Source of the DNA: Patescibacteria group bacterium
GTDB lineage: Bacteria > Patescibacteriota > WWE3 > JAUXAW01 > JAYEID01
NCBI GenBank assembly: GCA_034659915.1
Contig: JAYEID010000013.1
Span: forward strand, 74,917 to 138,916
Length of the DNA stretch: 64,000 bases
Reading direction: 5' to 3'
Below are positions 7,913 through 57,134 of the stretch, one piece after another. The position numbers and the translations under genes are program-made. The notes beneath the pieces are model-generated. The model did no database searches and was not told the DNA's origin. It saw only the letters and a program-made list of their open reading frames with translations. How positions within the stretch are numbered: the stretch's first letter is position 1; the number at the start of each line of letters is the position of its first letter.

Positions 7913-7941
7913 ATTGTAGTCTCAGGCGTTGTTTTTTTCAA
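7913..7941 (-). promoter_or_regulatory. sigma70-type promoter upstream of uppS (TTGAAA-17-TACAAT)
   Basis: Minus strand reads TTGAAAaaaacaacgcctgagacTACAATGTAA; the -10 overlaps an ATG immediately followed by in-frame TAA (7914-7909). Confidence 0.5.
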
Positions 7942-8001
7942 GTTAACGGGGTTTGTGTCTCGGGTCTTTTAGTATAAAGTGTTTTATGTTATCTTTAGCC
8001 T

Positions 8002-9381: not shown

Positions 9382-9413
9382 TAAAATCTTCAATTAGGTT
9401 CAAAATTTCCCAA

Positions 9414-14349: not shown

Positions 14350-17300
14350 ATGGTTAACCCTGTCCGTGATTCTAGTTCAATTGAAAAAATTTCCCAGTGG
14401 ATTGATATTTTTCTTCTTTTTGTGTTGGTTATTGCCAACTTGTTATTTCCCCTCTTTGGTCTTTCTGCGCATCTTGTAAGTTTGGTCCGGTTGTTGTTTT
14501 TGCTTTCCTTAGTTCTATTTTTTATATTTGTACGGTTGCCGCTTCTTTTCGTTGAATCGGTTGTGGGTATGCTTCGTTCCCACAAAGATAGAAAGAAGAT
14601 TTGGAGGAGTAGAAAAAATTTTCTTATTAAAAACCTTGTTTTTATTTTGGTTTTTCTTTTTGTGTTGGATTCAGTGGGTGCAAATTCTCTCCACGGCGTA
14701 ATTGGTAGAGAGTTGTTAGGGAGGAAAGGTGATCGTGGTGGAGCAGCTGATAATGGAGGGGAAGCCTACGGGTTGGTAAGGTCCAGCGAAAAAGAAATGT
14801 TTGTTCTGCGGGCAAAGCGTAAAGACTTTAAGTCTGAAGAGGACGTTACCTTTAAGGTAAGTTTTACCGATGCTTTGCCCTCCGCACCGGAAGAAAATGA
14901 GGCGTCAGGTTCTTCCTCCCAGCCCTCCTCGGCAACAACCTCTGCCACTCCCGAAACAGATTCTCCCTCTTCTGTAGATCAATCTGGTTCGGAAGAACCA
15001 ACCACCCAAGATTCTACTCCGGAGGGTACAGAAAGTGCTACTCCGGAGGCAACAATAAGCGCCCAGCCTAGTAATCAGGGGTTGTTGGGAAAAGTATTAG
15101 CGCTTTTGGAAAAATATAATATTTTTGGTTCTGTTAAAGCTCAAAGCAAAGAACCGGATATTGATGTGAAAATTTTTGATGTGGAAGGTGAAGAGACTCA
15201 CTTTCCTATTTCTGTTGAGGCTGATGAATCAGGTAACTTTGAGATAGAGGTAAGTAAGGGTAGAGCGTTTAGACCCGGGAAGTATGAGCTTAAAGTTACC
15301 TTGGTAGATCCGGAAAGTGGTGAAGAGCTTGATTCTATAGAACAAGATTTTACCTGGGGTGTTTTGGCTGTTAATACCAACAAGTCCATTTACCTGCCCC
15401 GGGAAAAAGCAAAATTGCAGATGGCTGTTTTGGATGAAGAAGGGATGATGGAATGTAACGCTAAGCTGCGCTTGGAAATCCAAAATCCGAAATCCGAAAT
15501 TCAAAACCTCTCGACGGAAGAGGGAAGCATTACCGTGAACCCTGAATGCAAGTTGCATGACTTTACTCTGGTGCCGGATTACGAGGCAGAATACCAAGTT
15601 GCCGATTCTGGTGTTTATGAGATGAAACTAACTGCGGAAACAGAAAACGGCACTTATACCATTACCGATTCTTTTGAAGTGCGCAACGAAGTCCCTTTTG
15701 ATGTGGAGAGGGAAACAGCAACCCGTATTTATCCTCCCGAGTCTTACCCCGTTACTTTTTCTATTAAGGTTAACCAAGATTTTACCGGCGTAATTGAGGA
15801 GCGTGTTCCTGCAAGTTTTGAGGTGGAATGTCCCCCTCTTTTTGATGTGGATTCGGGAACTCGTAGCAACAGTTGCCAGATCAAGGAGAAGGACGGCGTC
15901 AAAACAATATCTTGGTCTGTAAGTTGGGCAGAAGGGCAAAGGACAACCTTGTACTATCGTTTCAAGACACCTCTCATATCGCCGCAATTTTACCTTCTGG
16001 GACCTTTAACCTTCCGTAGCCTTGGCGAAGGAGGTCCTTCCACTACTGTTTTTGAAAAAAGCGAGGATGAGCTTGCACCGACGAGCTTCGAAGAAGCGAG
16101 GAGGTGGCAGCTGGCTATTGACGATACGGAAGGCGCCAACAGCCCAAGCAGCGCAGCTGAAGATACATCTGTAGGTGGTTATTCTTGGTCGGGATATACC
16201 AATGTTTATTCTAGTAATGATTCCTATGCTGAGGTTACTTTGGGTAAAGGATATATAAGTTATTATATTAAAGCTACCGGCTTCGGTTTTTCCCTTTCTA
16301 ATTGCGAGTCCATTGATGGGATTTATGTAGAGGTGGAGCGTAAATCTAACGATGCGGCTGATATGGAAGATAATTCAGTACGCCTGGTTAACGGTAGTGG
16401 TACTATTGTTGGCGATGACAAAGCAATAGCTGGTGATTGGCCAACTTCGGATACTTACCAAGGTTACGGTGGTTCTACCGATACGTGGAACGCCAGCTTG
16501 ACTTGTAGTGATGTTACTAATTCTAATTTTGGAGTTGTCTTTTCAGCGCAGAACACTGTATCTACTAAACCACGCGATATTACTGCCTCCGTTGACCACA
16601 TTCGGGTGACCGTTTATTATACTGCTGCCCCAGCTCTTGAACAGAGCCATTACCGTTGGCGCGACGACAGCTACGGTTTAAACACTGACAACGGTTGGCA
16701 GGCAAATGAAGATAACGAGTACAATGGCTTGCCGACAAATACTACCGCCCGTTTACGAATGGAAATTGACAATACCGGTGACGCGGAGGCGAGCAGTTAT
16801 CAGTACCAACTGGAATATGCTGCCCAAAGTGGGGACACTTGCGGCGGCGAAAGTTACACCGCCGTACCGGTTACTGCTTCCACAGAACCTTTTGAGATGG
16901 TTACTTCTAGCCAATACACGGACGGTGACGCTATTACTTCGGGATTTCTGACAGGTTCCGGCACTTGGGCTGATGGTGAGGGTGTGGCAGACCCCTCTAA
17001 TAAAACAGCAAGCCATAGCTTAGCTTATGGTGACTACACAGAATTTGAATATGCAATTCAGGCAACTAGTGATGCAGGCAGTGGACAGACCTACTGTTTC
17101 CGGTTAACAAATGATGGCTCGATTGAGAATTTTACTTATACTAGATACGCTGAAGCGACCATTCAAGGAGTTAGCGGTTCTTTGGGCAAATCTGCAGACG
17201 GATGGGCGGGGGCAATTCCAGTTTATATGGATGTTATTGGTTATGATTCCAGTTATTACGCCCGGGCTAAAGTGGATACGCCTGCTGCGGAAACCTACTA

Positions 17301-21148: not shown

Positions 21149-22186
21149 ATGCAATTTGCACGCAAATTTAAGAAACTCTTGCCTATTTTTATACTAGGAG
21201 GATTATTAGCGTGGATGAGAGTAAGCACGGTTCATGCGGCAACGCTGACCGGAGGTTCGGTAAGCTTGAGCGATTCCCGCCCGGATCAAACTAGCGTGGA
21301 ATATGATTCCGAGTGGAGTAATGTAACCCAATCAAACATTAAATGTATTAAGATCCAGTTTAATACTGCTGCTGACGGAAGTGGGAGTGTTCCTTTGACT
21401 TCTACTGGTGGTACTGTGGATACCACTAATACGGATTATGTTGACGTAAGTACGTGGACCACTGATTTCACAACTAACGGTACGGTTACAATAACAGACT
21501 CAACGGGTGCCGCACCGACCAGTTCCTCTAACCTGACAATTGCTTTGGACGGAATTACCAACGGTTCCACTGCGGATACCGGTTATTATTATATCCTTAA
21601 CACCTATGACAATACGGATTGTTCCACGAGTCCTGTGGACGAAGGTACAGTAACCTTTATCTATACCGAGGGGCAGTCTGTATCTATGACTGTGGACCCG
21701 TCCATTAGTTTCTCCCTTGCTTCTGTGGGGTCGGGTGTATTAGTGAACGGGGCAACTACTACTGAGGCTAGCACTACAACTACCATTCCTTTGGGAACGG
21801 TTACAGATACCACCAATGGAATTACAGCGCACGACCTTACGGTAAGCACCAATGCGGAAAACGGTTACACGGTTTACGCCCGCTATACCGGTCAGCTGAC
21901 TTACAGCACGGCTACAATTGACGATCATACGGGAGATCATACTACGCCTACGGAAATGTCTGTGGGGACTGAGGCGTTTGGTTACACTACCGAAGATACT
22001 GACCTTTCTCAGTTTCAGCCAAACAAGTGGGCTGGGTTTACCAGTACTAATGCTTCAGTGGCCACCAATACGACGGCGGCTTCCAGTGAAACAACCCGTA
22101 TCGGTTACCAAGCGGGAATTAGCAGCACAACGGAGGCGGGGACTTACACAACTACTGTTATCTTGACTTGCACGCCCACCTACTAA
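21149..22186 (+). CDS. secreted Thr-rich beta-strand protein sharing the giant protein's C-terminal domain (SCPU/WxL-like fold guess)
   Basis: Signal peptide MQFARKFKKLLPIFILGGLLAWMRVSTVHA; residues about 185-345 (PSISFSLASVG...NAENGYTVYARYTGQL...AGTYTTTVILTCTPTY) align block-by-block with the giant protein's C-terminus. Confidence 0.6.
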   Translation: MQFARKFKKLLPIFILGGLLAWMRVSTVHAATLTGGSVSLSDSRPDQTSVEYDSEWSNVTQSNIKCIKIQFNTAADGSGSVPLTSTGGTVDTTNTDYVDVSTWTTDFTTNGTVTITDSTGAAPTSSSNLTIALDGITNGSTADTGYYYILNTYDNTDCSTSPVDEGTVTFIYTEGQSVSMTVDPSISFSLASVGSGVLVNGATTTEASTTTTIPLGTVTDTTNGITAHDLTVSTNAENGYTVYARYTGQLTYSTATIDDHTGDHTTPTEMSVGTEAFGYTTEDTDLSQFQPNKWAGFTSTNASVATNTTAASSETTRIGYQAGISSTTEAGTYTTTVILTCTPTY

Positions 22187-22388
22187 AAACGCTCGTTGGA
22201 GAGTTTTTAGAGGTGGCGGCAAGTTGGGGGGTGGGGGCTTTGTTGTTTATTTGAATTGCCGGTAGGCACCAAAGCGGCGCCCCACAAGCAGGCTTGTGAC
22301 TTCCTGCGAAGGGCGGGGGTGTTTTAGAGGCACCCCTTTGTTCCTTGCCTTGAATAATAAAGCTTGAATTAATTTTTTGATTTGTGTT

Positions 22389-23318
22389 ATGAAACTTAAA
22401 CTGGTTACAATTGTAATTTTTTCTTTCTTCTTGTTTTTCCCTTTCCAAAGAGCGCGGGCGCAGGAAATGGTTACTCTTAGTGTTTCGCCGCCGGTTTTTG
22501 AGCTTACAGCTAATCCGGGGGATACGCTCAAGAATGTGATTCGGGTGAGTAACCCCCACGAGGAGCCGCTTAAAGTTTCGGTGGATACCCGCAATTTTGT
22601 GGCGGTGGGTGAGGTTGGCTCGGTGGGGCTTACGGAGGAAGAAACGCCCTATTCTTTAGCTTCCTGGATAAGTGTAACCCCTACTCAGGTTGAAATCCCC
22701 GGCGAATCCAGCTGGTATTTTAATGTTGAAACAAATGTTCCCTTGAACGCAGAACCCGGCGGTCATTTTGGTTCCGTGGTTTTTAAAACAGGCGGCGGCG
22801 CTGTCCAGCAGACCGGTGCTGCAGTTACTCAGGAGTTGGGTTCTTTGTTTTTGCTGAGGGTTTCGGGAAAGGTAACTGAAGACGGTCGGGTGGAAAGCTT
22901 TTCAGCAGAGAAAAAGTTTTGGGAATACGGTCCTATCCGGTTTGATCTGCGGGTGGAGAACAACGGCAATGTGCATATCAAACCGCAGGGGAAAATAGCA
23001 ATTACTAACATGTTAGGAAAAGAGGTGGCTGAGGTGGATGTTAAGCCGCAAAATGTTTTACCTGATGCGGTCCGCAAGTTTTCACCAACCTGGGAAAAAG
23101 AAATTCTTTTTGGAAAATACACAGCAACCGCATCTCTGGTTTACGGCAGTGATAGCGAGGTTTTAAATGCAACTACGAGTTTCTATGCTTTCCCCTACAA
23201 AGTAGGGGGTGCGGTTTTGGCTGGCCTAATTGTTATTGGCTTTTTGCTCTACCGTGGTCGAAGAAGAATAGCCTTAGCCCTACGGATACTGTTTGGGAAA
23301 CATGAAGACAAGGCCTAA
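22389..23318 (+). CDS. membrane-anchored surface protein, paralogue B
   Basis: Blocks VSPPVFELTANPGD, LASWISVTP, EPGGHFGSVVFKT, ENNGNVHIKPQGKI, C-terminal TM then RGRRR; ATG 22389 (ORF track opens at TTG 22377). Confidence 0.6.
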   Translation: MKLKLVTIVIFSFFLFFPFQRARAQEMVTLSVSPPVFELTANPGDTLKNVIRVSNPHEEPLKVSVDTRNFVAVGEVGSVGLTEEETPYSLASWISVTPTQVEIPGESSWYFNVETNVPLNAEPGGHFGSVVFKTGGGAVQQTGAAVTQELGSLFLLRVSGKVTEDGRVESFSAEKKFWEYGPIRFDLRVENNGNVHIKPQGKIAITNMLGKEVAEVDVKPQNVLPDAVRKFSPTWEKEILFGKYTATASLVYGSDSEVLNATTSFYAFPYKVGGAVLAGLIVIGFLLYRGRRRIALALRILFGKHEDKA

Positions 23319-31881: not shown

Positions 31882-33774
31882 ATGCGCAAACTTTTAGTAG
31901 GCTTTTGTATTGCAATTGTTTCAGTTTTAATTTTCCCCTCTAACCTTTTCGCTAAGGATTATTCTATTGGTGCAGTCGATATAAATGTTGATATTTACCA
32001 AGACCGTTCTTTTGAGATAACTGAATCCCGTGTATATAACTTTGACGGGAGCTTTTCTTGGGCAGATTTGTGGATCCCAACTAGGGTCACTCGCAACGGG
32101 AACAGTTATGACGTTTCTATTTCTAACTTTGAAGTTCGGGATGAGACTGGAAATTTGCTTGAAACAGAGACAAGTCAAAGAGAGGGTAAATTTTATGCTA
32201 AGTGGTTTTATTCTGCCCAAAATGAGAACAAAACTTTTATCTGGACCTACCATGTAGAAGGTGATGCAATTAAGAAATATGAGGATATTGCAGAGTTTTA
32301 TTGGCGGGTAGTTGGGGATGAATGGGAAAAATCAGCTGGACCTGTGTCTGTTCTTGTTCGGTTGCCTTCGGGGGCAGAGGAAGAAGAAATTCAAGTTTAT
32401 GGTCATTTGCCAACAGATGCGCTCTTAGATATTGGTGGTCCCAAGAAAACTGACTCAGAAATTATTGACTCGCAAACTGTTCGGTTTACTGTTCCTAGGC
32501 TGCCTGCAGAAACCTATTTGGAGGTGCGAGTTCTCTTTCCCCCACAGCTTGTTTCTGGTCCAATCTCGGGAAAAAAATCTTTGGAAGAAATAAAAGTAGA
32601 GGAGAAGCAATTTGTAGAACAAACAGTTGCTACTTCTAAAAGAAGGCAGCTGGTTGCTAAGGCAGTTCTGGGGTATGTGTTTATTGTTATTCCTCTTTCT
32701 ATTATTGTTTGGCTTTACTTTTATTGGCAGGCTTGGAAAAGGAAGGGCAGAGAGTACCAGTTTCCAGATATTCCCAAATATGTGCGGGAGTTACCTTCGG
32801 AGTTACCGCCAGCTATGGTTGATGTTCTTTTGAGGCAGGGCGGCAAGCCCAGTACTGATGCTTTTGTAGCTACTATTTTTGACTTAGCGCGAAGAGGGTA
32901 TATCTCTTTGAAAGATGAAACAGAGATAAAAGCCGGTCTTCTACAAACTAGAAAAAAGATAAAGACAAATCTGATCCGCCAAGAAAAGGACATTAACGAG
33001 CTACGTGACTTTGAACAGATGATTTTAGAAATTCTTTTTAAGACTATTCCTGAGGGAAAGGATGGTAGCTTGTTTGGTGTTGTTGGTGCTGCTTTGGGTC
33101 AGGGTCAGGGTGAAGATCAAGCTGAATCTTCGTCGGAAGATGTTATACAGTTTGGCGATGTTGAAAGCTATATTAAAAATCACCAGCAGAGTTTCCGCAG
33201 GTGGTTTGAGCAGTGGCAAAAGGAGGTTGTGAATGAGGCAGAGGTTGGCGGTTATTTGGAAAAAGAGGGGAAAGAGCTTGCTAAGAAATTTTGGGTTATG
33301 TCAGCTTTGCTTTTATTTTTTGGTTCTCCAGTTATTCTTTTGGGAATTTTTCTTATTCCTAATCTCAAGCGGTGGAAAAAGGAGTGGGCAAGGGAAGCAG
33401 CGGAGTGGGTAGCTTTTCGTAAATTTTTGGATGACTTTTCTAGTTTTGAAGAGATTCCTCCCGAAGCTTATAAACTGTGGGAGTATTATTTGGTTTACGG
33501 TGTTCTTTTTGGGAATGCTGAGGCGATTTTGAATGCTTTGCCCGTGATTTTTGAAAACCCCCGCGCTGCGCAGCCTACTTGGTACTTAACAACTTCTGGT
33601 GGAAAAATTTCGGGAGCATCTCTTTCTTCAATTTCTTCTATGACTAATAGTATTGCCAATTTAAACTCTTCAATGCGTTCTGTTTCAGCCTCTTCTATGT
33701 CCTCTGGTAGTGGGGGTGGTTTTTCTGGTGGTGGGGGAGGGGGTGGTGGGGGTGGTGGAGGCGGTGCTGGCTAA
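31882..33774 (+). CDS. DUF2207-like membrane protein with C-terminal poly-Gly tail
   Basis: Signal peptide, roughly 230-aa extracytoplasmic beta domain, TM helices at about 260 and 470, C-terminal SGSGGGFSGGGGGGGGGGGGGAG as seen in DUF2207 proteins. Confidence 0.5.
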   Translation: MRKLLVGFCIAIVSVLIFPSNLFAKDYSIGAVDINVDIYQDRSFEITESRVYNFDGSFSWADLWIPTRVTRNGNSYDVSISNFEVRDETGNLLETETSQREGKFYAKWFYSAQNENKTFIWTYHVEGDAIKKYEDIAEFYWRVVGDEWEKSAGPVSVLVRLPSGAEEEEIQVYGHLPTDALLDIGGPKKTDSEIIDSQTVRFTVPRLPAETYLEVRVLFPPQLVSGPISGKKSLEEIKVEEKQFVEQTVATSKRRQLVAKAVLGYVFIVIPLSIIVWLYFYWQAWKRKGREYQFPDIPKYVRELPSELPPAMVDVLLRQGGKPSTDAFVATIFDLARRGYISLKDETEIKAGLLQTRKKIKTNLIRQEKDINELRDFEQMILEILFKTIPEGKDGSLFGVVGAALGQGQGEDQAESSSEDVIQFGDVESYIKNHQQSFRRWFEQWQKEVVNEAEVGGYLEKEGKELAKKFWVMSALLLFFGSPVILLGIFLIPNLKRWKKEWAREAAEWVAFRKFLDDFSSFEEIPPEAYKLWEYYLVYGVLFGNAEAILNALPVIFENPRAAQPTWYLTTSGGKISGASLSSISSMTNSIANLNSSMRSVSASSMSSGSGGGFSGGGGGGGGGGGGGAG

Positions 33775-35138
33775 TTACTAGATACCTCAATAAAACTTCC
33801 ACTAAGGATTTTTGCGCTTGGACCCATTTGCTTCTTGTCTAAGAGAACGGTGCTTTTTGCAGGGCGGTTGGTAGCTTTTAAGTAATCTTTTATAGTTGAT
33901 CCCTCAGCTACAGGAACTACTCCTAGTTCTTTATCAATAACATATATATCTGGCTTTAAAACTTTTTCTGCAAGCTCACCCAAAAATTGCTCACTTTCTT
34001 CTTTCATAAAGTTTTCTTGCCATTCAATAAGTTTCTGTGTCCAGTACCGAATTTTTTCTACTTTTTCAGAATCTGTTTGTGCATGGGTTAGATGGATTGC
34101 TAAGCCAAAATCTGCACGTTGGTGCATGTTCTTGTCTCGAATTTGTATCTCAAAAATGGAGCCTGAGTTTTTGTCAAAAACGCGGGTATGCAAAGCTTCG
34201 TAACCGTTGGGTTTTGGTTGAGCAATAAAGTTACTAATTCCCACATGAGGTACGGGTTTGTAGTTTTCGTGAATAATTCCCAAAGCAGTGTAGCAATCTC
34301 TTTTTTTGGGAACTACTACACAGGTTATTACTAAGTCGTATACTTCGTCTAAATTTTTATTAATTTCTTTGCGGTGAAGTTTAGCAAATAGACTGTACCA
34401 ATTTTTTCTGCGAGTTTCAGTTTTAATAAGTTTTAGCGGTTCTTTTTTAAAAATATGCTCTAATTCAAAGTTTATCGCTTTAATTATCTCTTCCCTTTTA
34501 TCCATTGCTTGTTTTGCATACTCTGTTACCCATTGAAAGTCTTTTGGTCTTTGGGTTTTAAAACACAGTTCACGTAGGTCACCACTTACCTCGCTCATTC
34601 CCATCTTGTATGCTAGGGGAGCGTATACAGATCTTGTTTCTTCCGAAAGCTTGCTTTGGGCTTGTGGAGAAAGGTATTGGATAGTTTTCATATTGTGCAA
34701 TCTGTCTGCTAATTTTATAACTACTACCCGAAGATCTTTAGACATGGCTAAAAACATTTTCCTCAGGTTATTGGCGAACTTTTCTTTCTTATTTCTATGA
34801 AAATCAACCTCGCTTACTTTTGTTACACCATCTACCAGGTTAGTGATTTGGGATCCAAACTCCTTCCTGATATTACTGAGGGTAAGGGGTGTATCTTCCA
34901 CTACGTCATGAAGCAACCCTGCGCAAATGCTTTCGGTGTCTTGTTCCCATTTATTAAGGTTTTTTGCTGTTTCAAGAGGGTGAATAAAGTAAGGTTCGCC
35001 AGATTTTCTTAAGTCGCCCTGGTGTGCTTTCTGCGAAAAATCTAAAGCCTTTTTTATTTTTCGCAAATTAGGGTTTTGGGGGTTGTTTTTTAGTTCTTTT
35101 AGAAAAATGTTTCTTGCAGTGTCGAGATTATATTCCAT
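33771..35138 (-). CDS. short bifunctional-type RelA/SpoT homologue (HD hydrolase + synthetase + TGS)
   Basis: HD block HPLETAKNL...AGLLHDVVEDT, synthetase block YKPVPHVGISNFIAQPKPNGYEALHTRVF...EIQIRDKNMHQRADFG, TGS-like C-terminus; 455 aa, no ACT domain. Confidence 0.75.
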   Translation of the reverse strand: MEYNLDTARNIFLKELKNNPQNPNLRKIKKALDFSQKAHQGDLRKSGEPYFIHPLETAKNLNKWEQDTESICAGLLHDVVEDTPLTLSNIRKEFGSQITNLVDGVTKVSEVDFHRNKKEKFANNLRKMFLAMSKDLRVVVIKLADRLHNMKTIQYLSPQAQSKLSEETRSVYAPLAYKMGMSEVSGDLRELCFKTQRPKDFQWVTEYAKQAMDKREEIIKAINFELEHIFKKEPLKLIKTETRRKNWYSLFAKLHRKEINKNLDEVYDLVITCVVVPKKRDCYTALGIIHENYKPVPHVGISNFIAQPKPNGYEALHTRVFDKNSGSIFEIQIRDKNMHQRADFGLAIHLTHAQTDSEKVEKIRYWTQKLIEWQENFMKEESEQFLGELAEKVLKPDIYVIDKELGVVPVAEGSTIKDYLKATNRPAKSTVLLDKKQMGPSAKILSGSFIEVSSN

Positions 35139-35221
35139 AGTTTGTGCTATTTTCTAATTCCTCCCTGTTTTTGTCAATAATTCTCTTAAATTACTAGTAA
35201 TGTTTATGGTACCATGCCTAT

Positions 35222-37006
35222 ATGATTTTAAAGAAGTTGAAAAAAAGTCTGAAGTCATTTTTACAAATTTTTCTTACGCGGGATTTTTGGATTTATTTTT
35301 CTAGTTCCTTGCTATTAGCTTTTTCAATAATTTTCTTTGCGTATCATTTAGCTTACGCTAGGAAAACTATTCCTGGAGTGCGAATGTTGGGTTTGGATTT
35401 AAGTAATAAGAGTGAACGCCAAACACTATCTCTACTAAAACCGCGTTTGGTGGAACTGGAATCTGCTAATTTGCAATTTTCTTATCAGGATAAGGTATTT
35501 TCTAAGAGTATGTATGAATGGGGTGTTCGTTATGATGCAACCTCTTCTGCCCAAAAAGCATTTGCTTTTGGAAGAAGTGGTCATGTTTTTAAGACAACTA
35601 AGGATAAGTTTCAGGCTGGTACGGCGGGAGTTTCACTTCTACCAGTAGCTTCCATTGACGAACAATCTTTTTCCGCTACTTTGTCTGAAGTTGCTGCTGA
35701 TGTTGGCAAGCCAAAGGAGAATCCCTATTTTGCACTGGTTGAGGGTTCTTTGGAAGTTGTACCTGGTGAGAGTGGTTACGAGATTGATGAGAATAGCTTC
35801 CAAGAACTGATCTTGCGGGCGGCGCAGGAGCTTGACTTTTCTCAAAAAGAATTACCAATAGAAGAAGTGGAGCCAGACTACACTAAAGCAGATCTGGAAA
35901 ATTTAGAGGTTGAGGTAGCGGAACTGTTGGTTTCCTCGCCCAAGCTTACGTTTGGATCTCGCACTTGGACCCTGTCTGAGCAAGAAATTCTTAAGCTTTT
36001 GGATTTCGAAGTAGCACCTGAAAATCCAAACAAAATACAAATTACTACTAATGAGGAGGGGCTTAGTTCTTTTGTTTCCTCCTTAGCAGCCTCCATAAAC
36101 CAACCAATGCGCGGCGGTACTTTTGAGCTTCAGGATGGGCGTGTTATTGATTTTGCTTTACCCCAGCCAGGGTATCACTTGAAAGAAGAAGAGGCAAAAC
36201 AAGTAGTTTCGGAAGTTGTTCTTGATCTCGAGAAAAGCGAAGTTGAATTGCCGGTGGAAGTTAAGGATGTACAGGCTAATGCAAATCAGTATGGAATTCG
36301 TTCTTTATTAGGAACAGGATCTTCCAATTTTAGCGGTTCTAGTTTGGGTAGAATTCATAATATTGACCTTGCCTCGTCCCGGCTGGATGGTATTTTGATT
36401 CCTCCTGGCGAAACTTTTTCTTTCAATGAGACGTTGGGTGACGTAAGCTCAGAAACCGGATACAAGACCTCCTATGTTATAAAGGATGGGCGTACTATTT
36501 TAGGGGTGGGTGGTGGAGTTTGTCAGGTTTCAACTACTATGTTCCGGGCAGCTCTAAATGCGGGGTTGCCAATTGTGGAGCGCGCAGCACACGCCTACCG
36601 AGTTCACTATTACGAGCAGGATAAGGGACCGGGGTTTGATGCTACTGTGTATTCCCCCTCGCCAGATGTTAAGTTTGAAAATGATACCCCAGCTCATGTG
36701 TTAATCAAACGTTATTACAACCCATCTACCTCTACCTTGCAGTTTTCTTTCTATGGTACTTCTGATGGGCGTACTGTTAATATTGTGGGTCCCATAATTC
36801 ATTCTCAGACCCCTCCCCCGGAGCCAGAGTATATTGAAGATGAATCACTAGAACCGGGAGAAACAAAGCAGGTTGATTGGGCAGCTTGGGGTGCTAGGGT
36901 TACAGTGAAAAGAAAAGTGACCCGGGGTGGGGAAGTTTTGCATGAAGATAATTTTTATAGCAGTTACCAACCTTGGCGAGCTGTGTATTTAGTAGGGAAG
37001 GAATGA
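35222..37006 (+). CDS. VanW-family protein
   Basis: N-terminal TM, then SGYEIDE... and the VanW core GVGGGVCQVSTTMFRAALNAGLPIVERAAHAYRVHYY. Confidence 0.7.
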   Translation: MILKKLKKSLKSFLQIFLTRDFWIYFSSSLLLAFSIIFFAYHLAYARKTIPGVRMLGLDLSNKSERQTLSLLKPRLVELESANLQFSYQDKVFSKSMYEWGVRYDATSSAQKAFAFGRSGHVFKTTKDKFQAGTAGVSLLPVASIDEQSFSATLSEVAADVGKPKENPYFALVEGSLEVVPGESGYEIDENSFQELILRAAQELDFSQKELPIEEVEPDYTKADLENLEVEVAELLVSSPKLTFGSRTWTLSEQEILKLLDFEVAPENPNKIQITTNEEGLSSFVSSLAASINQPMRGGTFELQDGRVIDFALPQPGYHLKEEEAKQVVSEVVLDLEKSEVELPVEVKDVQANANQYGIRSLLGTGSSNFSGSSLGRIHNIDLASSRLDGILIPPGETFSFNETLGDVSSETGYKTSYVIKDGRTILGVGGGVCQVSTTMFRAALNAGLPIVERAAHAYRVHYYEQDKGPGFDATVYSPSPDVKFENDTPAHVLIKRYYNPSTSTLQFSFYGTSDGRTVNIVGPIIHSQTPPPEPEYIEDESLEPGETKQVDWAAWGARVTVKRKVTRGGEVLHEDNFYSSYQPWRAVYLVGKE

Positions 37007-37090
37007 GAGGTTGCCTCTTTAACCTCCGGGGGCCTATTTTTATCTATTCAGTTTAGTTTTTTCTGATTACAAGTTACCAGTTACGAATTA

Positions 37091-38554
37091 CTAGTTACCT
37101 CTTTTTAGCGCCTTTTTAATCTTACTCTTCGCTTCGTTGGTCTTAGCGCAATTTAACCAATCAGGTGAGGGTCCTTTACGGCTTTTATCGGTGAGGATTT
37201 CTACTACTTGTCCGGTTTGCAGTTTGGAATCTACCGCAATTAATTTTCCATCTGCCTTTGCTCCAGTGCAGCTGTTTCCGAGATCAGAGTGTATCTTGTA
37301 GGCAAAATCAATAGGAGTTGCTCCTTGAGGCAAGTCTAAAACATCTCCTTTGGGTGTGAGTACAAAGACCCTATCTGTATAAACATTTATTTTAAGTGCT
37401 TCTTCGAATTCCTTATTTCCTCGTGTTTTTTCTTTCCATTTAACTAAGTCTTTTAACCAGGATGTGTATTCCTTTGGTGCTCTTAATTGGCTTCCTTTTG
37501 TTCTTCCTAGTTCTTTATAAAAGGCGTGTGAGGCGGGACCGTATTCGTTGTATTCGTGCATTTTCCACGTACGGATTTGGAATTCGGCGATTCTGTTTTC
37601 CTCACAAAACACAGTGGTGTGAAGAGATTGGTATCCATTTGGTTTGGGATGGGCGATATAATCGCTAAACCTTTCCCCCGGTTCCCAAAAATTGTATACA
37701 ATATCCAAAGTTTTATAGCACTCATCAGTTGTGTTTATAAGGATTCGAAAAGCTTGGACATCGTGCAATCTTTTCAGGTATTCCCGGCTTGTTTCTCCTG
37801 CTTGTTTCTCGCTCTGCATTTTTCTATAAATGCTGTAAAAGTGTTTAGGACGTCCGTAAATTTCTGCGTTGATTCCCTGCTTTCTCAATTCTTTTCTTAT
37901 CTTTTTGCGCACCTTTTGAATATATTCGTTGCGGCCTTCTCTGGTTTCTTCTAGGAAGTTTTGAATTTCGGTGTGCGCTTTGTGGTTAAGGTACTTAAAA
38001 GCCCAGTCTTCCAACTGCCATTTGTAATAGTAAACGCCCAGGCGTTCAGCAATTGGCGCGTATATATCAAGAGCTTTTTGGGCTGTTTCTTCGCGTAGTT
38101 CTTCCGGTAAGCTTTCTATTGTTTTTAAGCTGTGTACTTTTTCTGCCAGTCGGATGAGCATTACGCGGATATCTTTGACTGTTGCCAAAAGAAGTTTTCT
38201 AAAATTTTCGGTTTGGGTCCAGCCGCCTGTTTTGGTTTTTACTTTTTTAATTACTGAAACCCCGTCAACAAGTTCGGCTACCTCTTTCCCAAAGTTTTTT
38301 TGTAGTGATTCTTTGGTTGTTTTTTCGTGTTCAATTGTGTCATGGAGAAGTCCCGCAGCAATGGCTGTACTCTCCATTTTTATATCTGCGAGAAGGTGGG
38401 CAACCTCCAGGCAGTGTTCAATTAACGGTTTCCCGCTTAAACGTTCTTCCCCTTCGTGGGCTTTTTGTGCATATTTGTAGGCTTTTTCAACTAGCCCAAA
38501 ATCCGCATTGGGGTTATATTTCTTAATTTTGTTTTTCAGTTTGGTAATGCTCAT
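37091..38554 (-). CDS. second short RelA/SpoT homologue (HD + synthetase + TGS)
   Basis: AAGLLHDTIEH HD motif, YIAHPKPNGYQSLHTTVF...EFQIRTWKMHEYNEYG synthetase, TGS block VFVLTPKGDVLDLPQGATPIDFAYKIHSDLG; 487 aa. Confidence 0.75.
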   Translation of the reverse strand: MSITKLKNKIKKYNPNADFGLVEKAYKYAQKAHEGEERLSGKPLIEHCLEVAHLLADIKMESTAIAAGLLHDTIEHEKTTKESLQKNFGKEVAELVDGVSVIKKVKTKTGGWTQTENFRKLLLATVKDIRVMLIRLAEKVHSLKTIESLPEELREETAQKALDIYAPIAERLGVYYYKWQLEDWAFKYLNHKAHTEIQNFLEETREGRNEYIQKVRKKIRKELRKQGINAEIYGRPKHFYSIYRKMQSEKQAGETSREYLKRLHDVQAFRILINTTDECYKTLDIVYNFWEPGERFSDYIAHPKPNGYQSLHTTVFCEENRIAEFQIRTWKMHEYNEYGPASHAFYKELGRTKGSQLRAPKEYTSWLKDLVKWKEKTRGNKEFEEALKINVYTDRVFVLTPKGDVLDLPQGATPIDFAYKIHSDLGNSCTGAKADGKLIAVDSKLQTGQVVEILTDKSRKGPSPDWLNCAKTNEAKSKIKKALKRGN

Positions 38555-51124: not shown

Positions 51125-52393
51125 ATGCTAGATATTGATTTTATTCGTAACAATCCAGATACGGTGCGGAGGGGTTTACAAGCCAAGCAAGCTAATCCTT
51201 CTTTGGTTGATAAAACTCTTGAGTTGGACAAAGAACGGCGTGAGCTTTTGCAAGAGGTAGAAAAACTGCGGCATGAGATAAATGAAATTAGTAATATTCA
51301 GGAAAAGCCATCTGCAGATGATATTGAGAGAGCTAAAAAGTTAAAGAATCAGCTAAGAAAACTTGAACCAAAGCTTCGGGAGGTTGAAGAAAGGTTTAAG
51401 GAAGTTTGGCAACAAATTCCAAATATGCCTGCTGAAGATGTTCCTCGGGGGGAAAGTGAAGAAGAAAATGTTGAGGTTAAAAAGTGGGGTAAGCCACGGG
51501 ATTTTGATTTTGAACCTAAGCCTTATTGGGAGCTAGGCGAAAGCTTGAGAATTATAGATAAAGAAAGGGCAGCTAAAGTTTCCGGAGCCCGCTTTGGTTA
51601 TCTAAAAGGAGCTGCAGTTTTGTTGGAGTTTGCCTTAGTTGACTTAGCAATAAAGAACCTTCTTTGGGAGGGTTTTCTTCCTGTAATTCCACCCGTAATG
51701 ATAAATGATAAAGCCATGCGTGCCATGGGTTATTTGGAACATGGCGGTGAGCAGGAGACTTATCATTTTGAAAAAGACCAGCTTTATTTAATTGGGACTT
51801 CGGAGCAAGCAGTTGGTCCTATGCATATGAATGAGGTTTTGGAGGAGGGTACGTTGCCACGGCGTTATGTTGCTTTTTCTACTTGTTTTCGGCGCGAGGC
51901 TGGTAGCTATGGCAAAGATACTAAGGGTATTTTTCGAGTTCATCAATTTGATAAGGTAGAGATGTTTTCTTTTACCCATCCGGAAGGATCCGAGGAGGAA
52001 CACGACTTTCTCCTCTCTGTGCAAGAAAACCTAATGCAAGAACTAGAAATTCCTTACCAAGTGACAGAAATGTGTACTGGTGACCTGGGTGCTCCAGCAG
52101 CTAGAAAGTATGATATTAATGCCTGGTTCCCTTCACAAGATTGTTATCGGGAGACGCATTCTGCCAGCAATTGTACAGACTTTCAGGCTCGAAGGCTTAA
52201 TGTAAAATACCAAAATGAAAAAGGTGAGAAAGATTTTGTTCATACCTTGAACGGTACTGCGTTTGCTATTGGTAGGACAGTTTTGGCTATTTTAGAGAAC
52301 TACCAACAAGAGGATGGTTCGGTATTGATACCAGAAGCTTTGGAACCTATGGTGGAAATGGGAGTGATTCAGCCTGTCCCAAGTAAATTGTAG
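51125..52393 (+). CDS. serS: seryl-tRNA synthetase
   Basis: MLDIDFIRNNPDTVRRGL N-terminal coiled-coil arm; class II motifs FRREAGSYGKDTKGIFRVHQFDKVEMF, GTAFAIGRTVLAILE. Confidence 0.9.
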   Translation: MLDIDFIRNNPDTVRRGLQAKQANPSLVDKTLELDKERRELLQEVEKLRHEINEISNIQEKPSADDIERAKKLKNQLRKLEPKLREVEERFKEVWQQIPNMPAEDVPRGESEEENVEVKKWGKPRDFDFEPKPYWELGESLRIIDKERAAKVSGARFGYLKGAAVLLEFALVDLAIKNLLWEGFLPVIPPVMINDKAMRAMGYLEHGGEQETYHFEKDQLYLIGTSEQAVGPMHMNEVLEEGTLPRRYVAFSTCFRREAGSYGKDTKGIFRVHQFDKVEMFSFTHPEGSEEEHDFLLSVQENLMQELEIPYQVTEMCTGDLGAPAARKYDINAWFPSQDCYRETHSASNCTDFQARRLNVKYQNEKGEKDFVHTLNGTAFAIGRTVLAILENYQQEDGSVLIPEALEPMVEMGVIQPVPSKL

Positions 52394-54505: not shown

Positions 54506-54757
54506 GTGATACTAAAAGAGTTGTTGCAATGGTACCGCTGTAATTGTCGTGATAATGAGCTTTACTTTGGGCATTGTAATTGTTGCGGGAACTTTATTGT
54601 TAATCGCAAGCCCTTTTTAGTACCTGATTTGGACGGAAATAGTAATAGTTCATATTACTATTGTTGTTCCCTTAAGTGCGCTCTTCGCAAGGCAAATCAA
54701 GTTGACCCGGATTGGGTTTGTGACGTATTAATGCGTTTCCGCGAAAATGATAACTAG
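54506..54757 (+). CDS. hypothetical small Cys-rich protein
   Basis: 83 aa with 10 Cys (CNCRD...HCNCCGN...YYCCSLKC...WVC); GTG start. Confidence 0.35.
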   Translation: MILKELLQWYRCNCRDNELYFGHCNCCGNFIVNRKPFLVPDLDGNSNSSYYYCCSLKCALRKANQVDPDWVCDVLMRFRENDN

Positions 54758-54896
54758 GTAGCATTTGAGCCTGAGGGTGTTCGAAAAAAGCCTTCAGGCT
54801 CTTTTATTTTGTAATATCTACAGATATAGGATATAATTAAGCTACTGGAATAAGATTTCGTTCGAGGTTGGCAGGTTTACAAGAAAGGAGCTGAGA

Positions 54897-55139
54897 GTGG
54901 CTATGCGTACTAAAGCAGCACTTCGTCAGATGAGCATTTCCGAGCTCCGAGGATACCGCCGGGAGGTGGAAGGTCGCTTGGAGCGGGCGCAAGAGGGTCT
55001 GTCCCCTTACAGTATGGAGGACATAGACCGAGAGCTGGATCGGATTGATGCTGTTATCGCGGAGAAAGAAGCAGAATCCCGTGATCAGAAGAAATCCGAA
55101 CCAAGCTCGGGGGCCAGCCAGCTAAAGTTGGACCTCTAG
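54897..55139 (+). CDS. hypothetical small charged protein (GC-rich islet)
   Basis: AAAGGAG SD; 80 aa, Arg/Glu-rich helical. Confidence 0.4.
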   Translation: MAMRTKAALRQMSISELRGYRREVEGRLERAQEGLSPYSMEDIDRELDRIDAVIAEKEAESRDQKKSEPSSGASQLKLDL

Positions 55140-55148
55140 GAGGCCCTA

Positions 55149-55340
55149 ATGAATATGAGTAGATTTGAATTGGGAGATCGAATCTGCGGGGTACACGAGA
55201 TTCTGAGTGTGTTGCGCAGCCTTCCAGGAGGAGCGGACGCGGAGGTTCAGAAGCACTGGGAGAAGCGATTGAAAATGCTGGAGGAGGCGGGGGATGAAAA
55301 AAGTGCCTTACAGGATTGTTCGAAAAGTGCGCGTAGGTGA
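55149..55340 (+). CDS. hypothetical small protein (GC-rich islet)
   Basis: GGAGG SD 8 nt upstream; 63 aa; overlaps next ORF in another frame. Confidence 0.3.
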   Translation: MNMSRFELGDRICGVHEILSVLRSLPGGADAEVQKHWEKRLKMLEEAGDEKSALQDCSKSARR

Positions 55341-55698
55341 ATCTCGGTCCCCCAAGAATAAGAAAGAGGTGGATCTTCCGCGGGATTTGGAAGAAGAGCT
55401 TCTTTCTTCTCTGGAGGCTTACTTGCCGGAGGAAGGCGTTGCGATTACGGAGGGGGTTTTTCCTCCCGGAGCATCGGAGCCCTACATTGCGGAAGCAGGG
55501 GCTTATCAACATGCCTGGCGCGCTTACAGCGCTGCTTGGCAGATGTTTGGTTTGGGAGCAACTAAGGAGCAGGTGGGGAGAATTGCTTGGCGGAAGCTGG
55601 GGATTTTTTCTCCCTTTGCACAAAAAGCTCTTAACCTACCCAAGCGCCCAGAGGACGTAGCTTCTTGGCTTTGGCACTTAGTCAAAAACGACAACTGA
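55294..55698 (+). CDS. hypothetical protein (GC-rich islet)
   Basis: GGAGGCGGGGG then ATG; 134 aa; stop codon sits in the loop of hairpin 55686-55708. Confidence 0.4.
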   Translation: MKKVPYRIVRKVRVGESRSPKNKKEVDLPRDLEEELLSSLEAYLPEEGVAITEGVFPPGASEPYIAEAGAYQHAWRAYSAAWQMFGLGATKEQVGRIAWRKLGIFSPFAQKALNLPKRPEDVASWLWHLVKNDN

Positions 55699-55766
55699 GT
55701 TGTCGTTTGCAAAGAAATAGCCCGAGGGCTGAGGTGCGGTACAGACCGCGACCCAGAACTCGGGCT
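55686..55766. terminator. bidirectional terminator hairpins between convergent genes
   Basis: AAACGACAAC-TGAG-TTGTCGTTT (T-run on minus side) and AGCCCGAG...CTCGGGCT followed by TTTGATTTTGTT on plus. Confidence 0.5.
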
Positions 55767-55784
55767 TTTGATTTTGTTCGGAAT

Positions 55785-56834
55785 CTATTTAGGAGGCTTG
55801 TCACCGCGTACTTTCCAGCCCCGGAACCAACCTCCGTCTTCTCTATTGTGGGGGAGCTTGAGTTGTTCGGGTGATTTAGGTTCTTCTTTTCCTTCTGTTG
55901 GTTTTACAGTTGGCGGACTATTTCCTCCTTTATCTCCAACATTTGTTTCCAAAGATTCAAAAGGTTCTTTCCGACAAACAGAGTTGAACCGACAGTATTT
56001 ACAGGTGTGGTCGTTGTCTATAGGTGTCCATTTTTGCTCTAGCAGTACGGATTGAGCAGTTGCGAACTGTCCCTCTAACCTTTGGCGGTTATAGCTTTCG
56101 AGTTTTCGCAATTCACCGCTTCTTAGTGACCAAACTATACCCATGATTGGTAGGTTGCCAAAGTGCGCAGCCACTTCCGGCTTTTTAGAAAGGACTGCTT
56201 TTAGGCCCTCAATGTAGGCGGAAATCTGCAGTAGTTTGATGTTTTCGAGCCGGCTTGTGGTTATGTCAACAATTGCTAGCATATCTCTTTGGGGTAGGTG
56301 CCAAAGCTGATCGATACGCCCGGTAAAGGGGTACCTTTCAAACAGCTCAACCGTAGGGAGTGTGTACTCTACTTCTAAGATTTCAACAGGCCCCAAACCA
56401 AGGCTTTGGGGTAAGCTTAGAAAGCGGTCCCAGTAACCAATGTTGTCCGGGGAACCAGTAAGCAATTCTTCTCCCGTTCTCATAAGTTTCCAGTACTGTC
56501 CTTCGTATTGCCAGGTTACATCCCCGTACCGCTTCCGGTATTCTTCAATGCTTCTTTTCCAGCGCCATTTCCAAAATCCGCCAAATGACTCTTTGGATTT
56601 GAAAAAGAACGGCCTTTCTGGGGTGGGTTCAAACTTACCCCTGTTGGCGCCGGAACCAATGTGGAGGGCTTCAGTTGCTTTGTGGCAAGCATCCCCAAAA
56701 GGTAGGTACCAAGGTGCTGGGGTAACCACCCTCATTATCCGATCTAGGAAAAACTTACGGGCGCAACCCAGTATCTGGAGAATACTACTTGGGCTCCAGA
56801 CCATCTGCGCAATAAACTTGCTAATATCTCGCAT
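55785..56834 (-). CDS. PD-(D/E)xK nuclease, Cas4/RecB-like with Fe-S cysteine cluster
   Basis: N-terminal Cys (LGCARKF), GRIDQLW and IVDITTS acidic motifs, QISAYIEG (QxxxY), C-terminal CKYCRFNSVC; 349 aa; GC-rich. Confidence 0.55.
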   Translation of the reverse strand: MRDISKFIAQMVWSPSSILQILGCARKFFLDRIMRVVTPAPWYLPFGDACHKATEALHIGSGANRGKFEPTPERPFFFKSKESFGGFWKWRWKRSIEEYRKRYGDVTWQYEGQYWKLMRTGEELLTGSPDNIGYWDRFLSLPQSLGLGPVEILEVEYTLPTVELFERYPFTGRIDQLWHLPQRDMLAIVDITTSRLENIKLLQISAYIEGLKAVLSKKPEVAAHFGNLPIMGIVWSLRSGELRKLESYNRQRLEGQFATAQSVLLEQKWTPIDNDHTCKYCRFNSVCRKEPFESLETNVGDKGGNSPPTVKPTEGKEEPKSPEQLKLPHNREDGGWFRGWKVRGDKPPK

Positions 56835-57134
56835 GACCTCCCCCTTTGGAATGAATTCATTTGTTTATGTGCTTTTGAGTTTCTAAGAGAAATATTACCA
56901 CAAATTAATATTGTAGACTATAGCTTTATCTTGTAGTTATTTAATATATGGTGGTTCTTTTGTCTGTATTATAAGTGTGGTTCTAGGACCACTCCCTTTT
57001 AATAAAAAATGCCAAATTCAGTCTTCAAGGTAAAAAAAATTAGAAAAAGCCCGGGTGCAGGGTGGCACGCGCGGCGGCTTTTATCCTCGGCCGGTTTAAA
57101 GGTAAGTGGGTTCGTGATAGAATTGAGGCTGATT

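Follow-up and report, generated by a model that had tools for sequence, protein, structure and literature searches.

The 349-aa nuclease encoded in a GC-rich islet of the window (the whole 64-kb stretch of DNA analysed here) is probably a resident, vertically inherited, stand-alone Fe-S PD-(D/E)xK enzyme, employed in DNA end, flap or branch processing and not in CRISPR adaptation or defence. It belongs to the RecB/AddB/AdnAB-Dna2-Cas4 superfamily, where it is part of a small patescibacterial (CPR) clade, and is overall an ordinary gene, in a variant form of a familiar type. The islet (54830-56900) contains two convergent gene sets separated by hairpins:

54767..54801, plus strand: terminator hairpin with U-tract (-21.8 kcal/mol, z -4.0, then CUUUUAUUUU)
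54809..54837, plus strand: sigma-70-like promoter, TTGTAA-17-TATAAT, upstream of the small-gene operon (10 of 12 consensus positions)
54897..55139, plus strand: s80, an 80-aa acidic orphan protein, predicted to be helical or coiled-coil (AGGAG 5 nt upstream)
55149..55340, plus strand: s63, a 63-aa orphan protein (AGGAGG 5 nt upstream; 47-nt overlap of its 3' end with s134)
55294..55698, plus strand: s134, a 134-aa basic, Trp-rich orphan protein (GGAGGAGG upstream)
55686..55708, no strand assigned: hairpin 1, a 10-bp stem closed by a 3-nt loop, the TGA stop codon of s134 (-11.4 kcal/mol, z -3.7)
55718..55769, no strand assigned: hairpin 2, bidirectional and terminator-like (A-tract, 19-bp irregular stem, U-tract)
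55785..56834, minus strand: stand-alone PD-(D/E)xK (PDDEXK_1) nuclease, putatively Fe-S, 349 aa (PF12705 match)

The nuclease was classified by comparison with profile collections. It matches PDDEXK_1 (PF12705) with an E value of 6.6e-10 and 39.8 bits against a gathering cut-off of 22, its residues 13-288 aligning with model positions 2-247 of 247, and its homologues carry precomputed PF12705 matches. It remains below the cut-offs of both Cas4 models, i.e. PF01930 (15.2 versus 22.7 bits, with residues 218-287 alone aligned) and TIGR00372 (16.9 versus 65). The Cas4 models of PADLOC gave weak, partial matches restricted to the C-terminal half (best E 1e-4), and a search of PADLOC-DB v2 with the nuclease returned only weak Cas4, DruK and Aga_Cas4-like matches (E 1e-4 to 0.06). 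The same database contained no match for four small proteins, and neither a partner gene nor the component set of a defence system was found in the locus. The closest folds are the nuclease domains of AdnAB, Dna2, ACE1 and Exo5, the best sequence-profile match in the PDB being ACE1 (E 0.0013). The 349-aa protein contains no helicase domain, and no helicase gene is adjacent in any homologue context. A similarity to the ORF at 35222-37006 (E 0.005) was rejected as spurious, the product of that ORF being VanW plus PG_binding_4.

The PHROG exonuclease profile phrog_69 also matches the nuclease (E 1.4e-8), which can be attributed to common superfamily membership. No phage relatives were found when the nuclease (tblastn) and the islet (blastn) were compared with 50,697 phage records. 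The description in the sequence-only reading of a stand-alone PD-(D/E)xK nuclease convergent to the small genes is upheld; in the HMM scan proposed there, the PDDEXK_1 model passed its cut-off and the two Cas4 models failed theirs.

The conservation of individual residues was read from a family alignment of 12 members, and three parts of the protein stand out:

56214..56312, minus strand: catalytic core D175, D190-I-T192 and K200-x2-Q203-x3-Y207, from the family alignment
55974..56003, minus strand: C278-x2-C281-x5-C287 cluster, which together with C24 (56763-56765) provides the four predicted ligands of an Fe-S 'iron staple'
55803..55865, minus strand: C-terminal motifs Q324-L-K-L-P-H ... G334-G-W-F-R-G-x2-V-R-G344, following a disordered linker

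C278, C281, C287 and Y207 are invariant, and C24, H51, E156, D175, D190, K200 and Q203 nearly so. The QxxxY motif is Q203-I-S-A-Y207, with Q203 present in at least 90% of the sequences. The Cas4/AddB arrangement of QxxxY, C-x2-C-x5-C and an N-terminal Cys, which had been recognised earlier from the letters of this one gene, is therefore retained, at the sequence level, by the family as a whole. The four cysteines would hold a [4Fe-4S] 'iron staple' shaping a narrow channel, through which one DNA strand, as a 5' tail or flap, would be threaded to a metal site composed of H51, D175 and D190.

The nuclease lacks the canonical D/ExK lysine: its sequence there is D190-I-T192, and Thr occupies this position in all close family members. 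In profile-to-PDB alignments the DLK lysine of ACE1 and AdnA lies opposite T192, and K200 lies opposite D or N; the outgroups P0012, P0013 and P0015 retain DLK or DYK. K200, which is invariant in the family or nearly so, is located three residues before QxxxY and eight downstream of the Thr. As judged from this pattern, K200 may substitute for the missing DxK lysine, in which case the first turn of the next helix, and not the beta-strand, would supply the general base. The migration of active-site residues is documented in the PD-(D/E)xK superfamily (PMC3424549). The replacement of DxK by D-I-T together with an invariant Lys before QxxxY is, as far as the alignment indicates, a mildly new feature.

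At the C-terminus, the motifs of the tail are kept across the family, whereas the linker that precedes them (pLDDT below 50) is not. The first motif is QLKLPH here and QLTLPH, QLFF, QLYF or QLTF in relatives; the tails of the outgroups terminate in QLRLRL or QLKMKL. QLKLPH resembles the QLSLPL motif of Hda (PMC5397184), and the consensus of clamp-binding peptides, usually found at the C-terminus, is QL(S/D)LF (PMC9690074); in half of the members (RQxxF) the fit of the tail to this consensus is only loose. DinB encoded in the window has a C-terminus without a recognisable clamp motif and offers no calibration for the tail of the nuclease. The conserved QLxL/F motif, clamp-binding-like by its residues and followed by GGWFRG, is a second mildly new point. 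We hypothesize that the flexible linker bears a docking peptide (QLxL/F, then GGWFRG), and that through it the nuclease would be tethered to a hub protein present at forks or at intermediates of recombination; the leading candidate for this hub is the beta sliding clamp. Such an enzyme would serve recombinational repair or replication by processing DNA ends, flaps or branches.

The search for homologues yielded 14 matches at E<=1e-3 among 1.84 billion representatives (23-91% identical). One more homologue was found by a profile search of a word-indexed database and one more locus (L094) by a metagenome scan, which brings the total to a small sample of about 16 proteins, many of them located on contigs of 1-6 kb. 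In six of ten contexts, down to 26% identity, the homologue resides in the slot between SerRS/UppP and SecA. The window and the sister species (L001) share the gene order SerRS-methyltransferase-PAP2-UppP-small genes, then, convergent to these, the nuclease, and SecA divergent from it; the two nucleases are 72% identical and the flank proteins 66-89%. Further homologues adjoin SecA (L005, 45% identical), UppP-PAP2-methyltransferase (L089, 31%) or SerRS (L092), or lie between SerRS and SecA (L093, 26%). Four of the ten contexts are neither SerRS/SecA nor ruv; in the outgroup loci L096/L097 the gene is placed among HisRS, glycosyltransferases and thymidine kinase. In one genome only (L086) the order is ruvC-ruvA-nuclease-ruvB, with the nuclease stop codon abutting the ruvB start.

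A scan of genome contigs for SecA listed, among its matches, relatives 45-59% identical, and SerRS directly beside SecA without the nuclease was, among the same matches, the common state in more distant CPR genomes, which suggests that the nuclease is an old, lineage-specific insertion. With a dN of 0.18 the nuclease does not stand out from the housekeeping genes beside it. The synteny with SerRS/UppP and SecA across relatives, together with the copy inside ruvCAB, argues for a resident DNA-repair gene and not for an import.

The raised GC content of the islet has to be considered separately for its two gene sets. The islet has 49.2% GC versus 42.5% in the window (SD of 2-kb windows, 2.9%), the small-ORF block reaching 53.4% and the nuclease 47.3%. 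GC3 is 0.58, 0.55 and 0.50 in s80, s63 and s134, respectively, and 0.46 in the nuclease, against a background of 0.36 +/- 0.05 (47 ORFs); as the values are highest in the small ORFs, the compositional anomaly is mainly theirs. In the sister species the small genes are again strongly anomalous and the nuclease is not (0.40 versus a background of 0.30-0.38), which points to differing histories of the two gene sets.

Each small ORF is preceded by a Shine-Dalgarno site (AGGAG/GGAGG, 4-8 nt upstream). The orthologues of s80 and s63 in the sister species are 64% and 67% identical, and dN/dS against this species is 0.25 for s80, 0.34 for s63 and 0.26 for s134, which indicates purifying selection and shows that the three are real genes. 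They were found in this one sister species only and are not co-inherited with the nuclease. Among 5.8 billion clusters s134 occurs in only two, one from its own genome ('Patescibacteria group bacterium' U9M98_02475) and one from that of the sister species. The small proteins have no significant family match in Pfam, PHROGs, NCBIfam or PADLOC and no paralogues within the window, and the AF2 model of s134 (pLDDT 51) is not usable. The slot beside the nuclease holds variable small genes, with HTH_17 proteins in L092 and L093. When the small proteins were compared by hhalign with the genes in the equivalent slot of L005, L089, L092 and L093, all probabilities were at most 1.4%.

The plus-strand terminator at 54767..54801 closes the upstream string of SerRS, methyltransferase, PAP2, UppP and a Cys-rich 83-aa gene, and the promoter that follows it is a consensus match alone, of a kind no commoner in the region than in shuffles. 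The stretch between the convergent gene sets folds strongly (z -6.3 on the plus strand, -7.1 on the minus strand), with U-tracts on both strands. Hairpin 1, followed on the minus strand by UUUUU, is not conserved in the sister species. Between the window, L001 and L005, hairpin 2 shows no differences in its outer stem, its GG/AA internal loop or CUGAG/ACCCAG, and the inner stem contains two compensatory pairs in the same comparison. This sequence conservation is unusually high and is a further mildly new point. Hairpin 2 is present as a single copy in the window, its orientation relative to the nuclease is inverted in L005, and its pattern had no match in viral contigs.

A 22-nt inverted similarity (55748-55769 and 57045-57066) appeared to flank the nuclease gene, as in a mobile element or a REP/RAYT-like arrangement, and was dismissed as a chance similarity: it is not kept in L001 or L005, and its 57-kb side has no significant fold. 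No direct repeats were found at the islet borders, no integrase or phage structural genes were seen around it, and an Rfam search of the islet gave nothing relevant, with no match for hairpin 2. CRISPR-like repeats are absent from the entire 64 kb. Several claims of the sequence-only reading are confirmed, namely the GC content elevated over the flanks, the three small ORFs led by Shine-Dalgarno sites, the bidirectional terminator hairpins, one of them overlapping a stop codon, and the absence of a CRISPR array.

Its conclusion, that the gene was likely to be phage-derived or defence-associated, is not supported, given the failed Cas4 cut-offs, the lack of phage matches and defence neighbours and the stable SerRS/UppP-SecA slot; what was found is the case it had named beforehand as speaking against it, a RecB-family paralogue with synteny conserved across relatives. 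A related possibility is that the nuclease serves in defence or against plasmids as a solo Cas4-like enzyme, acting alone or feeding another immune system and long retained at one locus. An independent immune function has been suggested for solo-Cas4 (PMC12094033), and the role of such genes in CPR is open (PMC5704561). The best PDB profile match, ACE1, is a defence-linked Cas4-family ssDNA endonuclease, and the weak PADLOC Cas4 hits, the phrog_69 match and the variable small genes in the adjacent slot, including the HTH_17 proteins, would fit as well. However, no Argonaute, cas, restriction-modification, phage or other defence gene was present in any of more than ten homologue contexts, the position of the gene is stable over deep divergence, with one copy inside ruvCAB, its dN resembles that of housekeeping neighbours, no phage or viral relatives were found, and the closest folds are those of repair nucleases. 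We therefore regard a defence function as unlikely. It is very improbable that the nuclease and s80, s63 and s134 constitute one module (regulators or inhibitors, toxin-antitoxin-like or defence) co-acquired as a GC-rich islet. The tight convergent layout with a common bidirectional terminator, the elevated GC of both gene sets in the window and the entire arrangement kept in the sister species speak for such a module. On the other hand, the small proteins have no homologues beyond the two sister genomes and no profile similarity to the same-slot genes elsewhere, all other contexts of the nuclease lack them, and the GC3 anomaly, present in the small genes of both species, is not shared by the nuclease of the sister species. 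The small genes would rather be a separate, younger orphan operon with high GC3, situated by chance in a variable slot beside the nuclease, the bidirectional terminator being common to both.

The loss of the DxK lysine allows for another suggestion, that the protein is a catalytically dead nuclease fold acting only in DNA-end or branch binding or as a scaffold. The presence of T192 in all close members, while the nearest outgroups retain DLK or DYK, is in line with it. However, the metal ligands H51, D175 and D190, the QxxxY motif and the family-invariant K200 after the strand are all conserved, which suggests a relocated active site, as known in the superfamily (PMC3424549), and not decay; a dead enzyme thus appears quite improbable.

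Compared with known relatives, the proposed repair-type nuclease differs from the nuclease domains of mycobacterial AdnAB and Bacillus AddB in being stand-alone, with no fused or adjacent SF1 helicase, in having Thr for the DxK lysine and a Lys eight residues downstream, and in possessing an extra helical insert of about 90 aa with a PTPERPFFFKS motif, as well as the predicted C-terminal docking tail. Eukaryotic Dna2 (nuclease domain) and Exonuclease 5 are 12-16% identical to this bacterial, stand-alone protein, which has no helicase domain and for which a clamp- or hub-docking tail is proposed. ACE1, confined to cyanobacteria and encoded together with a long-A pAgo, carries a canonical D-DxK, whereas no Argonaute was found near the homologues described here. 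Unlike CRISPR-associated Cas4, the nuclease has no cas1/cas2 or array nearby, its neighbours being SerRS, UppP and SecA.

The closest parallel is offered by the solo-Cas4 and pfam12705 Cas4-like genes (Hudaiberdiev et al. 2017, PMC5704561). Solo-Cas4 family genes are over-represented in CPR and have evolved mainly vertically, their role in defence or repair being open (PMC5704561). Like these, the nuclease is located outside CRISPR-cas loci in a small-genome CPR host, is mainly vertically inherited under ordinary purifying selection and belongs to a group of uncharacterised function. It differs from them in staying under the PF01930 and TIGR00372 cut-offs, in forming a very small, divergent subfamily (14 matches) and in occurring in none of the contexts described for pfam12705, i.e. 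phage, a UvrD fusion or a COG1205 helicase neighbour. According to a passage of PMC12094033 that cites work on S. elongatus, solo-Cas4 enzymes may act against plasmids; the Cas4-type catalytic motif is given there as D-D/ExK, from which the nuclease departs with D-I-T.

Raised GC content and a 'Cas4-like' gene are insufficient to call a defence or phage islet, the compositional signal here coming from the adjacent orphan genes. The active-site variant D...DxT...KxxQxxxY is now documented within the Fe-S nuclease group. The ultra-small genomes of CPR and DPANN commonly encode solo Cas4-like nucleases, and it is acknowledged to be an open question whether these serve repair or defence (PMC5704561). 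The present locus contributes modest evidence in favour of repair: a stable position, one copy in ruvCAB and a conserved tail pointing to a partner. It is possible, if doubtful, that the nuclease represents a Patescibacteria-specific, hub-tethered, Dna2/AdnAB-like enzyme that threads ssDNA, uses a relocated lysine, is recruited to the clamp or RuvAB through its C-terminal QLxL/F (+GGWFRG) peptide and supplies the 5'-end, flap or branch processing which these minimal genomes otherwise seem to be without. If so, it would be a bacterial counterpart of the PCNA-tethered flap or resection nucleases.

The islet (54830-56900) lies on the chromosome of a Patescibacteria (CPR) bacterium, in a stretch with housekeeping genes (tRNA synthetases, RelA/SpoT, DinB, ribosomal protein S9, SecA) throughout the window, and its immediate surroundings are organized as follows:

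Local gene string around the islet
51125-52393: SerRS, first gene of the string
3' of SerRS: methyltransferase-like protein
between the methyltransferase-like gene and UppP/BacA: PAP2
ending at 54477: UppP/BacA
54506-54757: Cys-rich 83-aa ORF, after UppP/BacA and before a terminator
downstream of the terminator, plus strand: small genes s80, s63 and s134
55686-55708 and 55718-55769: hairpins 1 and 2, between s134 and the nuclease gene
55785-56834, minus strand: 349-aa PD-(D/E)xK nuclease
174-nt AT-rich gap between the divergent nuclease and SecA genes
beyond this gap: SecA

The raised GC content noticed in the sequence-only reading was borne out (49.2% versus 42.5% for the window, approximately +2.3 SD in 2-kb windows), with the small-gene block reaching 53.4%. 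GC3 amounts to 0.50-0.58 in the small genes and 0.46 in the nuclease gene, compared with 0.36 +/- 0.05 in the other ORFs (n=47). The excess of the small genes is strong in both sister species (0.51-0.58), whereas that of the nuclease is marginal in the window and absent from the sister species L001 (0.40). All four genes are preceded by strong, correctly spaced Shine-Dalgarno sequences and, as s80, s63 and s134 have orthologues in L001 (GCA_964581885.1; 64-67% identity, dN/dS 0.25-0.34), the three ORFs proposed earlier are, on this comparative evidence, genuine genes. They gave nothing significant in any family library searched and have no paralogue within the window; s134, the only one queried against 5.8 billion clusters, has no homologue there outside the sister genome, and its predicted structure (pLDDT 51) is of too low confidence for use.

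In the homologous loci L005, L089, L092 and L093, quite different small genes fill the slot bounded by SerRS/UppP on one side and by the nuclease gene's 3' end on the other, and they show neither BLAST nor profile similarity to those of the window. Because the GC3 excess is strong in the small genes and marginal or absent in the nuclease, the GC-rich islet is essentially a young orphan operon placed in a variable slot, of which the nuclease is no part. Their shared location might suggest that the nuclease and s80, s63 and s134 form a joint module, but the small genes are not co-inherited with the nuclease, and we consider such a module very improbable. By eye, two nuclease-convergent small ORFs, in L005 (1677-1907, minus strand) and L089 (3297-3596, minus strand), are alike (WRxEV...CP...PPILR), which suggests another small-gene family moving through the slot.

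Several other features of the window were also observed. Its 'first' GC-rich islet (3222-5291), which holds the highest-GC 2-kb and 800-bp stretches and has no sequence relation to the 54830-56900 islet, contains three ORFs (GC3 0.45-0.51 versus a background of 0.36) of 196 aa (no family), 266 aa (SLT lytic transglycosylase domain) and 178 aa (no family). GC3 is also raised (0.45-0.46) in ORFs of 345 aa and 313 aa at 21149-23318. The 1875-aa ORF at 14350-19977, without a Pfam match at E<=1e-3, may encode a giant surface protein. A RelA/SpoT-family pair (33771-38554; 455 aa without and 487 aa with a TGS domain) flanks a VanW/PG_binding_4 gene; two such genes are unusual for a small CPR genome. 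The 83-aa protein directly 3' of UppP and 5' of a strong terminator contains 9 cysteines (CNC...CNCC...CC..C), is conserved (70%) in the sister species only, and has no family match.

The 86-nt convergent gap between s134 and the nuclease gene forms two hairpins (z -6.3 and -7.1), far more stable than shuffled controls, with U-tracts 3' of a hairpin on both strands; the loop of hairpin 1 is the TGA stop codon of s134, in line with the stop-codon overlap that had been read from the sequence. Hairpin 2 occurs once in the window (55718-55769), and its outer 8-bp stem, GG/AA internal loop and CUGAG/ACCCAG segments are identical in L001 (11046-11122, minus strand) and L005 (1573-1649, plus strand), even though a comparison of the window with L001 shows synonymous sites close to saturation (dS ~1) and the L005 nuclease is only 45% identical. 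Its inner stem carries two compensatory pair changes. No match was found in Rfam or viral contigs, and a covariance model recovered a single weak analogue (E 0.2), which occupies the corresponding position in L089. The A-tract/hairpin/U-tract design fits a bidirectional terminator. In L005 the entire element, A-rich and T-rich flanks included, has the opposite orientation with respect to the nuclease gene, which is compatible with this function, since orientation would not matter for a bidirectional terminator. Nevertheless, across the three lineages compared, the sequence conservation of hairpin 2 exceeds a terminator's needs.

The nuclease passes PDDEXK_1 (PF12705) over its full length (39.8 bits versus 22) and misses the Cas4 cut-offs (PF01930, 15.2 versus 22.7; TIGR00372, 16.9 versus 65), while PADLOC gave only weak, partial Cas4 matches. 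The Cas4/AddB-like label holds at the superfamily level. The motifs on which it was based, i.e. N-terminal C24, C278-x2-C281-x5-C287 and Q203xxxY207, are all present. A helical insert of ~90 aa with a near-invariant PTPERPFFFKS motif separates the first core helix from the sheet.

The metal ligands H51, D175 and D190 and the QxxxY motif are conserved across the family, but the D/ExK lysine is missing: all close members have D190-I-T192, with T192 standing, in profile alignments, where ACE1 and AdnA have the lysine of their DLK, and the nearest outgroup proteins retain DLK or DYK. Taken alone, this loss might indicate a catalytically dead scaffold. More than 90% of family members, however, carry K200 within the first turn of the following helix, 3 residues before Q203 and opposite an Asp or Asn of ACE1 and AdnA in the profile alignments. 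Given the conserved ligands and K200, and the documented movement of catalytic residues to neighbouring elements in the PD-(D/E)xK superfamily (PMC3424549), we read this pattern as a putatively relocated lysine in an active enzyme; a dead scaffold is rather unlikely.

An exhaustive HMMER search of 1.84 billion representative proteins yielded 14 homologues at E<=1e-3 (9 of them at E<=1e-10), and word-indexed searches plus one metagenome scan added two more. Every reachable genomic context was surveyed, homologues being few and contigs short:

Genomic contexts of nuclease homologues (identity to the nuclease of the window)
L001/L002 (72%): identical gene order; flank proteins 66-89%, small genes 64-70%
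L003/L004: same gene order as the window
L005 (45%): nuclease and SecA divergent, the same arrangement as in the window
L093 (26%): SerRS, 86-aa gene and 162-aa HTH_17 gene, convergent with the nuclease; nuclease and SecA divergent
L092: SerRS and two 162-aa genes convergent with the nuclease
L089 (31%): methyltransferase-PAP2-UppP, two small genes, nuclease
L086 (GCA_964423535.1, 33%), 6708-10277: ruvC, ruvA, nuclease, ruvB
L088, L090, L094 and outgroup L096/L097: other chromosomal neighbourhoods (CorA, diacylglycerol-kinase-like, glycosyltransferases, HisRS, thymidine kinase)

None of these contexts contains cas, Argonaute, restriction-modification, integrase or phage structural genes, and no CRISPR-like array lies within the 64 kb; the sequence-only reading had likewise seen none nearby. 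Its suggestion of a phage-derived or defence-associated origin is not supported: there are no such genes around the homologues, and the nuclease is a housekeeping RecB-family paralogue kept in synteny across relatives, the very outcome that the sequence-only reading had named as speaking against its suggestion. A role as a defence or anti-plasmid enzyme, for which the literature leaves room, is without support from genomic context, and we regard it as unlikely, if somewhat less so than a dead scaffold.

As the identities of nuclease, flanks and small genes (72%, 66-89% and 64-70%) are similar, divergence between the window and L001/L002 is, at the sequence level, uniform over the whole region; nuclease dN versus L001 (0.18) is in the range of the neighbouring PAP2/UppP (0.21-0.23). 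Among the matches listed, SerRS stands directly against SecA, without the nuclease, in more distant CPR (Saccharibacteria, Collierbacteria and others), while relatives keep its position; the simplest history would therefore be that the nuclease gene inserted long ago between SerRS and SecA and has since been passed on vertically. This agrees with the mostly vertical inheritance, under ordinary selection, of solo Cas4-family genes in general (PMC5704561). In many CPR genomes listed (L006, L010, L053, L057, L062, L075) SerRS is immediately 5' of SecA on the same strand, sometimes with UppP just ahead of it, which looks like an ancestral CPR gene string expanded in the lineage of the window. SecA of the window is at most 50-59% identical to species representatives among the matches listed, the best including CPR lineages. 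Its ORF (902 aa) is over-extended 5', orthologues and sequence conservation indicating a GTG start near 57114. The SecA leader (window 57009-57120; L001 9727-10000; L005 343-514) carries a palindrome that differs in each of the three genomes: GC-rich in the window, where it folds no better than shuffles, and a GCATGCTGCATGC-type repeat in L001.

The nuclease ends in a disordered, unconserved linker followed by two conserved short motifs: [KR]xQ-L-x-[LF] (QLKLPH in the window; reduced to RQxxF in about half of family members) and, ~5-8 residues further, G-G-W-[FIM]-R-G-x-x-[VI]-[RK]-G. GGWFRG was not found outside the nuclease among all sequences searched here, and it is not known to match any other motif; two outgroup proteins lack it, their C-termini reading QLRLRL and QLKMKL. 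In E. coli, Hda attaches to the beta clamp via QLSLPL (PMC5397184), and the clamp-binding consensus QL(S/D)LF is typically C-terminal (PMC9690074). Our best guess is that the tail is a putative clamp-docking peptide.

If the nuclease works like AdnAB, AddB, Dna2, Exo5 and ACE1, its Fe-S 'iron staple' would form a channel that leads one threaded strand to a metal site buried in the protein, as described for ACE1 and AdnA (PMC12094033). Its substrates would be 5' tails, flaps or branched DNA, of which it would cut the single-stranded arms; at forks or intermediates of recombination, the flexible tail would anchor the enzyme to a hub protein. The ruvC-ruvA-nuclease-ruvB arrangement of one genome, L086, in which the nuclease stop codon (9086) is followed without a gap by the ruvB start (9087), points to a possible role in recombinational repair. 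Altogether, a threading Fe-S nuclease, tail-tethered to a hub and acting in recombinational repair, seems to us the probable, though far from certain, function. The nuclease is an instance of the already recognised solo Cas4-like nucleases of CPR bacteria, set apart as a small subfamily by its shifted putative catalytic lysine and conserved putative docking tail.
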